From: an uncultured Gammaproteobacteria bacterium
Lineage (GTDB): Bacteria > Patescibacteriota > Patescibacteriia > Magasanikbacterales > GWA2-37-8
DNA: 60,050 nucleotides
Assembly: GCA_964478235.1 (NCBI GenBank)
Contig: CAYZGX010000006.1
Span: 1 to 60,050 of the forward strand
Reading direction: 5' to 3'
Below the pieces are notes generated by a model that was not told the origin of the DNA, made no database searches, and worked only from the letters and a program-made list of their open reading frames with translations. Position 1 is the stretch's first letter, and every line of letters starts with the position of its first letter. Shown piece after piece: positions 47,498 through 58,453 of the stretch. Position numbers and translations under genes: made by a program.

Positions 47498-48289
47498 ATG
47501 AAAACGATTATTTTGTGTGGGGGTACTGGTACCCGTATGAAGGAGGAGACAGAGTTCAAACCAAAGCCGTTGGTCTTGGTTGGTGGTAAGCCAATTTTAT
47601 GGCATATCATGAAGCTTTATTCTCATTTTGGTCATAATGAGTTTGTTTTGGCGCTTGGTTATCGTGGCGACATGATCAAACAGTACTTCCTCAACTGGCG
47701 CAGTTTGCTCAGCGATTTCACCCTCAATACCAAAACGCACGATTTGTCGTTTCACAATAATGAATGCGACGATTTTACTATCACCTTCGGTGAAACCGGT
47801 TTAGAAAGTTTGACCGGCGAACGTGTTCGTCGCCTCAAAAAATATATTGGCAACGATGAACATTTTATGGTGACCTATGGCGACGGTGTCGCTGATATTG
47901 ATATTAACGATTTGATTGAGTTTCATAAAAAACAAAACACCTTAGTCACTATCACCGGCGTGCGCCCATCACACCGCTTTGGTCTCTTGGATGTTGATCA
48001 TACCGAAAACAAAATCAAAGGGTTTTATCAGAAGCTTGTGACTGATGATAAAGACAAAATCTCAAGCGATTACATCAACGGCGGTTTTATGGTGATGAAG
48101 CGTGAAGTGTTGGATATGATTGAGCCTGGTTCAATGATTGAAAGTATCTTTGAGCCACTCGCTGCCAAACGCGAATTATCGGTCTACAAACATAAAGGTA
48201 CCTGGAAGTGTATGGATACCTTCAAAGAAGTCGAAGAAATGAACGAACACTGGCGAAAAAATCCGTTTTGGAAAATTTGGAAAGACTAA
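47498..48289 (+). CDS. rfbF: Glucose-1-phosphate cytidylyltransferase
   Basis: MKTIILCGGTGTRMKEETEFKPKPLVLVGGKPILWHIMK is the hallmark RfbF N-terminus. 263 aa from ATG 47498. Confidence 0.88.
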   Translation: MKTIILCGGTGTRMKEETEFKPKPLVLVGGKPILWHIMKLYSHFGHNEFVLALGYRGDMIKQYFLNWRSLLSDFTLNTKTHDLSFHNNECDDFTITFGETGLESLTGERVRRLKKYIGNDEHFMVTYGDGVADIDINDLIEFHKKQNTLVTITGVRPSHRFGLLDVDHTENKIKGFYQKLVTDDKDKISSDYINGGFMVMKREVLDMIEPGSMIESIFEPLAAKRELSVYKHKGTWKCMDTFKEVEEMNEHWRKNPFWKIWKD

Positions 48290-48295
48290 TACCAT

Positions 48296-49255
48296 ATGAG
48301 TGTCCTTACTGGAAAAAATGTTTTAATCACTGGAGCAAGCGGGCTTGTCGGTTCGCATTTGGTGGAAGAGGTTTTGAAATTACAACCAGCCACTATTGTT
48401 GCCTTGTCGCGCAGTCGCGACCCTAAGTCGTACTTTGTACGCTCGGGATTAGAGAGTAAAGTGACGCTCGCTTATGGCGACCTCAAAGACAAAGAGCGTA
48501 TTTTTGATATTGTCACCAAATACGAAATCTCTCACATTTTTCATATCGCTGCTCAGCCAATTGTGGCGACAGCCTATATCAATCCCTACGAAACACTTTC
48601 GAGCAATATTATGGGCACTATTCACGTGCTCGAAGCGGCTCGTTTATCGCCAATGGTGAAAAGTGTCGTGGTTGCTTCGAGTGACAAAGCTTATGGCAAA
48701 GATTGTGTGCGAGCCGAAGAAGGCCACGAGCTTCGCGGTGATCATCCATATGACGTGTCCAAATCATGTACTGATCTTATAACTCAAACCTATGCCAAAA
48801 CCTACAATGTACCAGTAGCGATTAGTCGTTGCGGCAACATCTTTGGCCCGGGAGATATGAATTTCAACCGCATTGTCCCAGGGGCTCTCAAAGCGGCTAT
48901 TCAGGGTGAAACCTTGGCAATTCGCAGCAACGGCGAATTTGTTCGTGATTACGTCTATGTCAAAGATGTGGTCGCTGGCTACATTCTTTTGGCCGAAAAA
49001 ATGGATACCATTCGCGGCGAAGCTTTTAACTTTAGCACTGGTGGAAATTATTCAGTGATTAAATTGGTTGAAGCGATTGGCGCTGTTCTCGGAAAAAAGA
49101 TTCCCTACACAATTGTTAATAATCAAAAGAATGAAATTGTGGAGCAGAGTTTGAATTATGCCAAAGCAGTCGATAAGCTCGGTTGGAAATCGGCCACGTC
49201 ATTTGAACAAGCCATGCAAGAAACGTACGATTGGTATAAAAAGTATTTCGTCTAA
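48296..49255 (+). CDS. rfbG: NAD-dependent sugar dehydratase, CDP-glucose 4,6-dehydratase-like
   Basis: Rossmann motif ITGASGLVGSHL, catalytic YDVSK, and CGNIFGPGDMNFNRIVP resembling the RfbG G(N)VIGGGD..R(I/L)IP block. Adjacent to rfbF. Confidence 0.7.
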   Translation: MSVLTGKNVLITGASGLVGSHLVEEVLKLQPATIVALSRSRDPKSYFVRSGLESKVTLAYGDLKDKERIFDIVTKYEISHIFHIAAQPIVATAYINPYETLSSNIMGTIHVLEAARLSPMVKSVVVASSDKAYGKDCVRAEEGHELRGDHPYDVSKSCTDLITQTYAKTYNVPVAISRCGNIFGPGDMNFNRIVPGALKAAIQGETLAIRSNGEFVRDYVYVKDVVAGYILLAEKMDTIRGEAFNFSTGGNYSVIKLVEAIGAVLGKKIPYTIVNNQKNEIVEQSLNYAKAVDKLGWKSATSFEQAMQETYDWYKKYFV

Positions 49256-49272
49256 CTTTTTCAGTGTTCGGT

Positions 49273-50154
49273 ATGTCCAAAGTACACGTCGCGATTATTG
49301 GCACAGGCAATATCGGGAGCGACCTACTTCGTAAAGTGGAGCGCTCGCCCTTTTTGCGTTGCGGACTTTTTACCGGACGCAACCAAGATTCCGAAGGTAT
49401 TCGTCAGGCCAAGCGGATGGATGTGACTGTGTCATATGAATCAATTGAGGCAATTGAAAAAAATCCTGATTGCTGTGAAATCGTTTTTGACACCACCAGC
49501 GCCGAATCGCACAAGCGTCATGCTGAAATTCTCAAAAGACTTGGCAAGTTTACTATTGATTTGACGCCGTCGCGCATTGGCACCTTGTGCGTGCCAAGTA
49601 TCAACAGTGATGTTGTATTAACTTCGGACAATATTAACATGGTCACTTGTGGTGGGCAAAGCCTTATTCCAGTTGCCAAAGCGATTATGGAAACGCATCC
49701 GGACACCACCTATATTGAAGTAGTTGGAAGTATTGCCTCCAAATCAGCTGGCCCAGGGACACGCGCGAATGTCGAAGAATATATCACCACCACTTCTCGA
49801 GCCATTGAAGTTTTTTCTGGCGTGCCAAAAGCCAAAGCTATTTTGATTTTGAATCCAGCTGAACCGCCAATTTTGATGCACAACACGCTCTACGCCGATA
49901 TTCCGAATCCCGATCTCACCGCTCTCAGAAAAAAAATCGCTGAAACAGAAAAAATGATTCAAGCCTATGTTCCTGGTTATCGTGTTGCTGCCGGTCCGAT
50001 TATTGAAAAAGGTAAAGTGATGGTGATGATTGAAGTCGTGGGGCAAGGGGATTATCTCCCGACCTACGCTGGCAATTTAGATATTATCACCTGCGCTGCT
50101 GTTCGCGCTGCCGAAGAATACGCCATCAAAAAATTAGGAGCCATTGCTGTCTAA
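49273..50154 (+). CDS. Acetaldehyde dehydrogenase (acetylating), DmpF/MhpF family
   Basis: VAIIGTGNIGSDLL, catalytic-Cys block NMVTCGGQ, and size of about 293 aa. Confidence 0.85.
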   Translation: MSKVHVAIIGTGNIGSDLLRKVERSPFLRCGLFTGRNQDSEGIRQAKRMDVTVSYESIEAIEKNPDCCEIVFDTTSAESHKRHAEILKRLGKFTIDLTPSRIGTLCVPSINSDVVLTSDNINMVTCGGQSLIPVAKAIMETHPDTTYIEVVGSIASKSAGPGTRANVEEYITTTSRAIEVFSGVPKAKAILILNPAEPPILMHNTLYADIPNPDLTALRKKIAETEKMIQAYVPGYRVAAGPIIEKGKVMVMIEVVGQGDYLPTYAGNLDIITCAAVRAAEEYAIKKLGAIAV

Positions 50155-56957: not shown

Positions 56958-57093
56958 TTTTTTGGAGGGAAAGCGGCTTGCACTATCCGCGATCAAAGTA
57001 GATCAAAAGGAGTGCTACACGCCTCGTTTATTGAGTATCCGATTTCGGAGAAAGATAAGCGGGGCGTTCTTCTTTTTGGGGGAGTTTTAAAGG

Positions 57094-57122
57094 TTGCTTT
57101 TTTTAGCCAAAAGTGCTAGGAT
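57094..57122 (+). promoter_or_regulatory. Candidate promoter upstream of rfbH
   Basis: TTGCTT, 17 nt, TAGGAT (the same -10 hexamer as at 54870). Confidence 0.45.
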
Positions 57123-57154
57123 ACGGACATATTTTTAGCCCTCTTTTGAGCTGT

Positions 57155-58453
57155 ATGAACGACAGTTTGCGACAACTTTTGGTGGAAGAATATCAGAAAA
57201 AAAATCCCGCTAAGTCTTTTGTGCCAGGTGAATCAACGGTGCCGGTATCTGGTAAGGTTTTTAATGAAGAAGAAATCATCCAAGCCACCGACGCTGTCCT
57301 CGACGGCTGGTGGACCGACGGTCGGTTTAGTGCGCTCTTTGAACACCGTCTCGCTAAATGGCTTGGTGTATCTTACGCCGCTCTCGTCAATTCTGGATCG
57401 TCAGCCAATCTTGTTGCTCTAACAGCTCTTACCTCGGTTAAGCTTGGTGACAAGCGCTTGAAACCGGGCGACGAAGTTATTACGGTTGCTGCTGGATTTC
57501 CTAGTACGGTGAACCCAATTATTCAAAACCGACTTGTGCCGGTTTTTGTTGATGTCGAGCTTGGTCATTACAATGCTAACATCGAACAAATTAAAAAAGC
57601 TATTTCGCCAAAAACACGAGCGATTATGATTGCCCACACGCTTGGCAATCCGTTTGATCTCGATAGTATTGTTGAGTTGTGCAAAAAACACGATCTCTGG
57701 CTCGTTGAAGACAACTGCGACGCTCTCGGTAGTCGCTACAACGGCAAACATACCGGAACTTTCGGTCATGTTGCCACCTGCAGTTTTTATCCGGCCCACC
57801 ATATTACCATGGGGGAGGGTGGTGTAGTCTTTACGAGTGACCCACATCTTTTTAAAATTATTAAATCAGTTCGCGATTGGGGCCGCGATTGTTGGTGTGC
57901 TACCGGCAAAGACAACACCTGCGGTCGTCGTTTTACCTGGGATTTGGGTGGTTTGCCTCACGGCTACGACCATAAATACACCTATTCAGAAATGGGTTAC
58001 AATCTCAAAGCCACCGACATTCAAGCAGCGATTGGTTTGGCCCAGCTCGGCAAGCTCGATAGTTTTGTAGAGCAACGAAAAAATAATTTCAAAACTCTCT
58101 ACGAAGGTTTGAAGCAGTTTGAAAATGTCTTTGTTCTGCCGCGCTGGCAAGAGAAGGCTGAACCAAGTTGGTTTGGGTTCTTGCTCACCATAAAGCCAGA
58201 AGCTGGCTTTACTCGTGACGAGCTCGTACAATTCTTACAAAAGAAAAAAATCGGGACGCGTTATCTATTCGCTGGTAATCTCCTTCGCCAACCCTACTTT
58301 ACCGAGTATCACTATGACTACCGTGTTGTCGGAGAGCTGAAGAACACCGATATCGTCATGAATAACACCTTCTGGATCGGGGTCTACCCAGGGCTTACCC
58401 CAGAAATGATCGCCTACATGATCGCTTCCATCAGCGAGTTTATACAAAAATAA
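57155..58453 (+). CDS. rfbH: CDP-4-keto-6-deoxy-D-glucose-3-dehydrase (E1, RfbH/AscC/DdhC type; DegT-family fold)
   Basis: DegT/DnrJ/EryC1 fold ([19 protein letters not shown]). [14 protein letters not shown] has His where aminotransferases carry the PLP lysine. Cys-rich [19 protein letters not shown] is consistent with the E1 Fe-S site. ATG 57155. Confidence 0.88.

Follow-up and report, generated by a model that had tools for sequence, protein, structure and literature searches.

The synthesis of erwiniose has been described for Pectobacterium atrosepticum (Steitz et al., 2022, PMC9306805), where its donor acid, (R)-4-hydroxy-2-oxopentanoate, is produced by ErwJ, an acetaldehyde dehydrogenase, together with ErwI, an aldolase that resembles BphI. 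The thiamine diphosphate (ThDP)-dependent enzyme ErwE adds this acid to cytidine diphosphate (CDP)-4-keto-3,6-dideoxyglucose, the side chain being then reduced by ErwF to give erwiniose (PMC9306805). Purified ErwE rejects pyruvate and prefers the R acid (PMC9306805), an account repeated in a 2025 review (PMC12247030). The yersiniose A enzymes of Yersinia pseudotuberculosis, YerE and YerF, follow the same plan, i.e., a ThDP-bound acyl anion is added to the C4 ketone of the same CDP-sugar and the product is reduced, but YerE uses pyruvate, forms a two-carbon branch and has no aldolase/dehydrogenase partner. Here we describe a sugar cluster at positions 45424-59946 of a 60,050-nucleotide stretch (contig CAYZGX010000006.1 of assembly GCA_964478235.1, hereafter the window), which is the entire contig C6 of a genome of 0.94 Mb in 36 contigs, 96% complete, belonging to the candidate phyla radiation (CPR)/Patescibacteria. 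Very probably, this operon follows the erwiniose route and makes erwiniose or a stereoisomer of it, a 3,6-dideoxyhexose that is activated with CDP and bears a 1,3-dihydroxybutyl branch of four carbons at C4. The logic of that published pathway is left unchanged by our results, and the operon is a new member of it in a CPR host.

The likeness to the erwiniose cluster of P. atrosepticum SCRI1043 is seen in the gene set: both hold an acetylating acetaldehyde dehydrogenase, a BphI-like pyruvate aldolase, a YerE-like ThDP carboligase, an NAD(P)H reductase, a cytidylyltransferase, a 4,6-dehydratase and the 3-dehydrase known as E1, and the donor predicted for the window, 4-hydroxy-2-oxopentanoate, as well as the predicted acceptor, are those of Pectobacterium. 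The differences are also clear. Pectobacterium is an enterobacterium, whereas the host of the window has a CPR genome of less than 1 Mb; the window lacks E3, the reductase partner of E1, has a different, short-form 4,6-dehydratase and three inserted degenerate Nudix-fold genes, and would export the sugar apparently through a GtrB-like glycosyltransferase of family 2 (GT2) and a GT-C-fold enzyme instead of an O-antigen glycosyltransferase. If this assignment is right, an organism with less than 1 Mb of DNA would devote some 14 kb to a surface sugar that is rare and carries a long branch.

All the long open reading frames (ORFs) of the cluster are encoded by the + strand and follow one another closely, some of them overlapping (Table 1). 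The original prediction, made from the sequence alone, had called the cluster yersiniose-type. The genes that it named are all present, intact and co-oriented, and the view that an entry into CDP-3,6-dideoxyhexoses is coupled to a reductase and to a ThDP enzyme that branches the sugar stands, while the subtype has to be changed to the erwiniose one in place of a two-carbon branch from pyruvate. The cluster also runs past the limits first given (47498-58453), with a gene for a Wzy_C protein with tetratricopeptide repeats (TPR) upstream and the GT-C gene downstream.

Table 1. Features of the cluster in their order along the window, with the main basis of each assignment (AF2, AlphaFold2; SDR, short-chain dehydrogenase/reductase; TPP, thiamine pyrophosphate; TM, transmembrane)
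Feature	Position	Strand	Basis
Promoter-like site TTGACA-17-TATACT	45360..45388	+	11/12 consensus matches; consensus match alone
Wzy_C (O-antigen ligase/polymerase-like) polytopic protein with C-terminal TPR repeats	45424..47484	+	Pfam Wzy_C 5e-19, TPR_19
RfbF/DdhA-like glucose-1-phosphate cytidylyltransferase	47498..48289	+	TIGR02623 267 bits; ATG start at 47498
RfbG/DdhB-like short-form NDP-hexose 4,6-dehydratase, extended SDR	48296..49255	+	TIGR02622 200 bits; GASGLVG and YDVSK intact
DmpF/BphJ/ErwJ-like acetylating acetaldehyde dehydrogenase	49264..50154	+	TIGR03215 366 bits, cut-off 282
DmpG/BphI/ErwI-like class II pyruvate aldolase	50144..51166	+	NF006049 400 bits, cut-off 229
ThDP-dependent carboligase, YerE-like/JanthE-like, of the DmpFG-linked (ErwE-type) clade	51172..52980	+	Three TPP domains; Glu48 and GDG-x24-NNN intact
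Extended SDR reductase at the ErwF/YerF position	52986..53864	+	Pfam Epimerase 3e-24; GGSGFIG and YTAAK motifs
GT2 polyprenyl-phosphate glycosyltransferase, GtrB/ArnC/PgfS-like	53867..54811	+	Glycos_transf_2 9e-25
Terminator-like hairpin, copy 1	54829..54854	+	Before N1
N1, degenerate Nudix-fold paralog	54863..55480	+	Paralogous to N2/N3; no Pfam match
N2, degenerate Nudix-fold paralog with N-terminal helical extension and C-terminal Nudix domain	55626..56243	+	AF2, Foldseek
Terminator-like hairpin, copy 2	56259..56288	+	Before N3
N3, degenerate Nudix-fold paralog	56289..56957	+	Pfam NUDIX E = 0.0011, below cut-off
RfbH/DdhC/AscC, CDP-6-deoxy-L-threo-D-glycero-4-hexulose 3-dehydrase (E1)	57113..58453	+	NF011936 710 bits, cut-off 423
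GT-C-fold polyprenyl-phosphate-sugar-dependent glycosyltransferase, GT87/MptA-B-like, 495 aa	58459..59946	+	AF2 and Foldseek; Pfam matches of homologues

The two genes proposed to make the donor had been taken for an unexpected element, normally part of meta-cleavage catabolism. This view has to be given up, since the same gene combination has been published for P. atrosepticum, where ErwJ and ErwI form the donor-making pair (PMC9306805); the DmpF/DmpG pair is thus an expected part of the pathway and no anomaly, and in the sampled loci it occurs only beside one clade of ThDP enzymes. In the window the two genes overlap and directly abut the ThDP gene. Both subunits match those of the DmpFG/BphIJ/HsaFG complexes (1nvm, 4jn6, 4lrs, 8ih7): the dehydrogenase matches the Protein Data Bank entries 7z3s and 1nvm_B and retains its catalytic Cys within TCGGQ, and the aldolase keeps the catalytic and metal-binding residues R16, D17, H20 and H198/H200 together with a matching DmpG communication domain. 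In contrast with these catabolic complexes, the context in the window is biosynthetic, the predicted direction is reversed, and the residues at the stereocontrol sites predict a 4R product instead of a 4S one.

The latter point deserves attention. In BphI, Leu87 and Tyr290 flank the C4 of the substrate; the Y290F change abolishes stereocontrol, and the engineered double mutants L87W/Y290F and L87N/Y290F are specific for the 4R acid (PMC3962088). At the corresponding sites the window aldolase has F87 and F289. All 11 of the ThDP-linked homologues carry Phe, Tyr or His where BphI has Leu87 and Phe where it has Tyr290, whereas the four solved catabolic aldolases (1nvm, 8ih7, 4lrs, 4jn6) all have Leu and Tyr. 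Judged by these residues, the 4-hydroxy-2-oxopentanoate released by the window aldolase is probably the 4R enantiomer, which fits a biosynthetic aldolase making the R acid that ErwE uses. Furthermore, the site of BphI Leu89, which limits the length of the aldehyde, stays bulky, being Leu in the window and one of Leu, Ile and Val in the family at large. Going beyond the 2022 paper, the two sites form a natural signature of the ThDP-linked aldolases, the first (Leu87) being occupied by an aromatic residue or His and the second (Tyr290) by Phe. This signature resembles the stereo-inversion engineered in BphI and could mark biosynthetic as opposed to catabolic DmpG homologues.

As for the ThDP enzyme itself, its closest solved relative is JanthE of Janthinobacterium sp. 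HH01 (8rph, 8rpi, 8rpj), a YerE-like, ketone-accepting carboligase whose donors include 4-hydroxy-2-oxovalerate. JanthE (8rph) aligns over the full length at 435 bits, while acetohydroxyacid synthases (AHAS) reach at most 237 bits and PpYerE (5ahk) 225 bits. Gly120 and Cys510 are common to JanthE and the DmpFG-linked clade described below; JanthE differs in having a CDG ThDP motif where the window enzyme has the canonical GDG, and in lacking most of the 23 clade-specific residues. The window enzyme passes none of the equivalog cut-offs for AHAS (with TIGR00118 it reaches 351 bits where 538 are required), and a grouping with bona fide AHAS, proposed at the outset as what would speak against a role in sugar branching, appears neither in cut-offs and scores nor in the tree. 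A separate paralog of the acetolactate synthase (ALS) type on contig C3 does pass its own cut-off (NF006187, 767 bits against 509) and lies far from the window enzyme in the tree. The gene of that paralog (10847-12478; L116:2848-4479) adjoins one for a lactaldehyde-dehydrogenase-like aldehyde dehydrogenase (L116:4485-5915), forming a small carbon-metabolism module in a minimal genome.

These data bear directly on the idea that DmpF/DmpG are a remnant of meta-cleavage catabolism and the ThDP enzyme an acetolactate synthase of amino-acid synthesis, both placed in a glycan locus by chance. The automatic annotation of the Joint Genome Institute (JGI) does label the ThDP homologues as acetolactate synthases. 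Nevertheless, the failure at all the AHAS cut-offs, the existence of the separate paralog on C3, the Leu and Tyr shared by the solved catabolic aldolases and not by the window enzyme, and a gene order kept across phyla and in archaea contradict such a reading, to which we give hardly any credence. The labels “acetolactate synthase” and “4-hydroxy-2-oxovalerate aldolase” carried by homologues in CPR and in many uncultured lineages are corrected by this analysis.

The distribution of the pair was followed by scanning one genome per species, which gave 587 loci encoding relatives; the best 80 were examined with 10 kb of flank, together with relatives from the same phylum. In a maximum likelihood tree of 100 ThDP sequences, ErwE and YpYerE not being among them, all the loci with DmpF/DmpG have their ThDP enzyme in a single clade (Shimodaira-Hasegawa-like approximate likelihood ratio test, 97). 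Ten of the 13 rows of this clade have the pair nearby, two lie on contigs too short to tell and one, on a long branch, is without it; outside the clade, DmpF/DmpG were found near none of the ThDP enzymes of the 80 best loci and the phylum relatives. Moreover, 23 residues are almost fixed within the clade and rare elsewhere, and many of these fall within the ThDP domain at the C-terminus. Since its members range from CPR, Bacillota, Lentisphaerota, Elusimicrobiota and Gammaproteobacteria to Methanoregulaceae, the DmpFG/ThDP cassette moves horizontally. Another DmpFG-bearing locus, from the metagenome-assembled genome of a Methanocellaceae archaeon (L076), was kept out of the tree on account of its split ThDP gene: in L076:9971-13778 the ThDP gene lies in two ORFs and DmpF in three, through decay or assembly error.

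The co-inheritance of DmpFG across the clade and the 4R-type residues of the aldolase give indirect support to (R)-4-hydroxy-2-oxopentanoate as the predicted donor of the ThDP enzyme. The alternative put forward at first is that this enzyme moves a two-carbon unit from pyruvate, as YerE does before YerF, with DmpF/DmpG merely supplying or draining pyruvate, acetaldehyde or acetyl-CoA. Besides the YerE/YerF precedent, it can be said for it that JanthE takes pyruvate too. However, ErwE, with the same gene context, rejects pyruvate, PpYerE is no closer to the window enzyme than AHAS are, and the dedicated pair, which a mere supply of pyruvate would not need, immediately precedes the ThDP gene, is inherited along with a single ThDP clade and has its stereocontrol residues shifted family-wide towards the biosynthetic 4R product. 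We therefore regard a yersiniose-type branch as very improbable. On the other side of the ThDP gene, the intact SDR follows directly (3′), being likened to ErwF by its position, and homologues of it come after the ThDP gene both in the closest relative, a same-family genome (G018), and in L062.

In the loci outside the DmpFG-linked clade, other genes stand in place of the pair. An HMGL-like protein of 548 aa is encoded in 19 of them and a NeuB-family protein in 18 (L035:8342-9985, L019:6362-7591, and others in L012-L083), and HAD hydrolases and methyltransferases are also common in such ThDP/RfbH clusters. The HMGL-like and NeuB-family proteins would be other candidate makers of 2-oxoacids, which implies, as far as gene content can tell, a wide range of longer-branched sugars. 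In turn, the DmpFG/ThDP cluster of a CPR relative, G019 (L105:6635-17167), holds two additional aminotransferases (DegT-type and class I/II), a hint that its branched sugar may be aminated.

The entry into CDP-3,6-dideoxyhexoses, claimed from the beginning, is borne out, for the RfbF-like, RfbG-like and RfbH proteins are all present with intact motifs. RfbH shows the exact cluster motif of E1 (C202-x57-C260-x-C262-x7-C270), with His229 at the position of the lysine that binds pyridoxal phosphate (PLP). The four Fe-S cysteines are kept in 46 of 50 E1 homologues, and RfbH is 67-69% identical to the E1 of the same-family genomes G018 and G192; the retention of the cysteines and of the catalytic His, together with this identity, indicates that E1 is under selection for function. 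The RfbG-like dehydratase is of a short subtype (319 aa) whose counterparts, 43-66% identical, are found in only about nine related loci; most of the related clusters have a canonical RfbG of about 360 aa, 25-32% identical to the short form.

A different matter is how E1 receives its electrons. The original prediction had pointed out that an E3, i.e., a plant-type 2Fe-2S domain fused to a flavin- and NAD-binding module of the ferredoxin-NADP reductase (FNR) type, was missing, and had proposed a genome search for an AscD-like enzyme. Its absence was confirmed in the window as well as in the assembled genome, which yielded no match to PF00111 (Fer2, plant-type 2Fe-2S), no flavodoxin, no Fer4_7 domain and, among ORFs of at least 45 aa, no CxxCxxCxxxC motif. 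The sole FNR-type protein of the genome, of 228 aa and without an Fe-S domain, is encoded beside, and divergently from, sufB (C15:10465-11148; L001:1168-1854). The absence is not, on the other hand, peculiar to this locus. An FNR-like ORF lies within 10 kb in only three of the 80 related loci, which come from many phyla, and none of the three has a 2Fe-2S motif; likewise, the Fer2 domain occurs in none of five CPR genomes that were checked and carry such clusters. Because E3 was not found across these genomes and in almost all the related loci, clusters with E1 and without E3 are the rule in the family, a second point beyond the 2022 paper, to which the window genome adds that no classical electron carrier was found in it. 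In G019 a ferredoxin-less FNR-like gene sits between rfbH and rfbF, which is also the position of ddhD in the Yersinia cluster.

Two candidates for the lacking reductase were discarded. The 228-aa protein as a dedicated E3 was one of them: its family is present in 265 of the 401 genomes sampled from the phylum (66%), and of the 18 genomes that probably encode E1, the FNR-type domain is found in 14 and missing from four, one of these being a complete single-contig genome. Being so widespread in the phylum and lacking in those four, the protein is not specific to E1; it stays as the only classical reductant candidate in the genome. The other was an E3 past the end of the window. The contig stops at 60050, just after the last gene of the cluster, and the next gene in the syntenic G018 encodes a GDP-mannose 4,6-dehydratase and no reductase.

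A partial parallel is offered by SpnQ, the TDP-4-keto-2,6-dideoxyglucose 3-dehydrase of spinosyn synthesis, an E1-type enzyme with pyridoxamine phosphate (PMP) and a [2Fe-2S] cluster that has no dedicated E3 in its gene cluster and is served by general cellular reductases (PMC8987622). Its host, unlike the window genome as far as searched, has ferredoxins and flavodoxins. The lack of E3, ferredoxin and flavodoxin, as well as the other donor-making enzymes (HMGL-like or NeuB-like) of related clusters, could be read in favor of a different acceptor or donor, namely a 6-deoxy-4-C-branched hexose that keeps its 3-hydroxyl, or another short aldehyde and thus another branch length. Such a product is improbable in our view: E1 keeps its four Fe-S cysteines and catalytic His and is 67-69% identical to that of G018 and G192, SpnQ works with general cellular reductases (PMC8987622), the site equivalent to BphI Leu89 stays bulky, and the dehydrogenase matches the acetaldehyde dehydrogenase equivalog. 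We are rather doubtful about a more particular proposal, in which the Fe-S E1 would be reduced by an undescribed route, either directly by the 228-aa FNR-type protein or with help from the lineage-specific Nudix-fold trio encoded directly before rfbH, and the branched CDP-sugar would then pass to a polyprenyl-phosphate carrier and the GT-C enzyme.

On the basis of what the genes encode, their intact catalytic motifs, the clade of the ThDP enzyme, the co-inheritance of the genes and the protein folds, we infer the erwiniose-type route as follows, including all the substrates and products, the direction of DmpF, the electron donor and the acceptor. The RfbF-like enzyme would convert glucose-1-phosphate and cytidine triphosphate into CDP-glucose, from which the RfbG-like dehydratase would form CDP-4-keto-6-deoxyglucose; RfbH, with PMP and its [2Fe-2S] cluster, would then deoxygenate C3 to give CDP-4-keto-3,6-dideoxyglucose, its electrons having to come from a non-dedicated donor since no E3 was found. 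In parallel, the DmpF-like enzyme would reduce acetyl-CoA to acetaldehyde, and the DmpG-like aldolase would condense this with pyruvate to 4-hydroxy-2-oxopentanoate, probably the 4R form. Once the ThDP enzyme has decarboxylated this acid, it would attach the resulting acyl-anion equivalent at the C4 ketone of the sugar, and the SDR would reduce the ketone of the side chain. Finally, the GT2 enzyme would probably load the sugar onto polyprenyl phosphate, and the GT-C enzyme would transfer it outside the membrane to an acceptor.

Several observations weigh against this assignment and should be considered together. Both sugar-nucleotide enzymes stay under their equivalog cut-offs, the RfbF-like one with 267 bits against 300 for TIGR02623 (the next family giving 79 bits) and the RfbG-like one with 200 bits against 278 for TIGR02622. 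The orthology of the ThDP enzyme to ErwE, as presumed here, rests on gene context and on JanthE. The rfbH gene is cut off from the rest of the operon by two terminator-like hairpins and three Nudix-like genes, and nothing was found that would reduce its product, be it an E3, a ferredoxin or a flavodoxin. There is no obvious source of acetyl-CoA and acetaldehyde, acetate kinase and DeoC not being found in the genome, where other routes to these compounds were not searched. Lastly, to our knowledge no 3,6-dideoxy sugar of CDP origin has a known polyprenyl-phosphate carrier, and such delivery is undescribed.

The three Nudix-like genes just mentioned (54863-56957, between the GT2 gene and rfbH) had been passed over in the original prediction. 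N1, N2 and N3 share pairwise identities of 24-43%, and the three similar genes of G018 encode proteins 36-57% identical to those of the window. The AF2 model of N2 has a mean predicted local distance difference test (pLDDT) score of 83, mostly above 90 across the C-terminal 140 residues, and its Foldseek matches are Nudix hydrolases at probability 1.0, with a TM-score of about 0.75 on the target; in the Nudix box E122, R130 and E135 are retained and two catalytic Glu are lost. The family is small, with about 40 clusters, and in G190 one copy adjoins a gene resembling rfbH; several members come from contigs with the same recorded size as those bearing close ThDP homologues. That these might be Fe-S or redox proteins was rejected because they have the Nudix fold and no conserved cysteines; a function in CDP-sugar binding or hydrolysis is our guess. 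The hairpins between the genes share a 27-nt core (54832-54858 and 56264-56290, copies 89% identical), and a 16-nt element is repeated behind N1 (55553-55568) and behind N3 (57062-57077). The positions of these repeats suggest a tandem duplication of about 1.45 kb.

Regarding transfer of the sugar, the original assignments of the GT2, GT-C and Wzy_C proteins are upheld by domain matches, transmembrane (TM) topology and fold. The GT2 protein scores 197 bits with PgfS and 121 bits with ArnC, each below its cut-off, and has two C-terminal TM helices (residues 237-255 and 271-289). The GT-C protein itself has no Pfam match even at E = 1. Its AF2 model has a pLDDT of 96.5 and finds in Foldseek ALG6, PimE, GPI-MT-I, ArnT, ALG3 and PIG-U as best matches; the protein has an Atlas score of 0.99 for MptA_B. 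Its homologues match GT87, PMT_2 and ALG3 in Pfam, and Asp108, which lies in the first external loop, does not vary in 60 homologues. The fold and the Pfam matches of homologues settle its identity. The gene is retained in G018, and a single gene for a GtrA-like flippase lies elsewhere in the genome, on contig C26.

The pairing of a GT2 enzyme bearing two C-terminal TM helices with a GT-C-fold enzyme recalls GtrABC and ArnC/ArnT, with the difference that in the window the donor would be a CDP-linked branched dideoxy sugar. PgfS with PgfM1 and PgfM2 of Streptococcus mutans is a surface glycosylation system of the same GtrB/GT-C type. Topology and the modelled fold suggest that the sugar would be delivered as a polyprenyl-phosphate derivative to an extracytoplasmic GT-C enzyme. 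A homologue of the GT2 protein with at least 45% identity is found in 34 of the 61 related loci that measure 15 kb or more, and 27 of these 34 also encode RfbH; this recurrence of the cassette with a GtrB-like GT2, which also goes beyond the 2022 paper, suggests delivery on a lipid carrier. The Wzy_C/TPR protein has about 10-12 hydrophobic segments, and its counterpart, 51% identical, is in the same place in G018.

The named homologues of window proteins come from candidate phyla of the Parcubacteria type, such as Harrisonbacteria, Magasanikbacteria and Falkowbacteria, which places the genome in the CPR/Patescibacteria. In G018 the synteny covers the whole operon, with the Wzy_C gene at one end and the GT-C gene at the other, and identities of 51-83% for most genes and 36% for GT-C. 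Just before the operon of the window, a strong terminator-like hairpin (45318-45349) closes the gene of a Thr/Ser-rich secreted protein of 1231 aa; since the promoter-like site of Table 1 comes directly after this hairpin, it is the likely start of the operon.

The original prediction had seen in this 1231-aa surface protein a possible acceptor of the sugar. Its glycosylation finds no support in synteny, because the gene is not in the fetched syntenic stretch of G018, which also lacks the sigma factor and DUF5667 genes and where a permease gene abuts the cluster. In the window, a Trp_Tyr-type permease gene (37682-38662) is separated from the glycan operon by genes for an extracytoplasmic function (ECF) sigma factor, a DUF5667 protein and the surface protein (38700-45350); as the G018 permease gene directly abuts the operon, this module is either an insertion in the window or a deletion in G018. 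The last 200 or so residues of the surface protein (44660-45262) recur, with 37-47% identity, in two ORFs of contig C7 (20749-21369 and 22870-23355), and may possibly be a shared anchoring or targeting domain.

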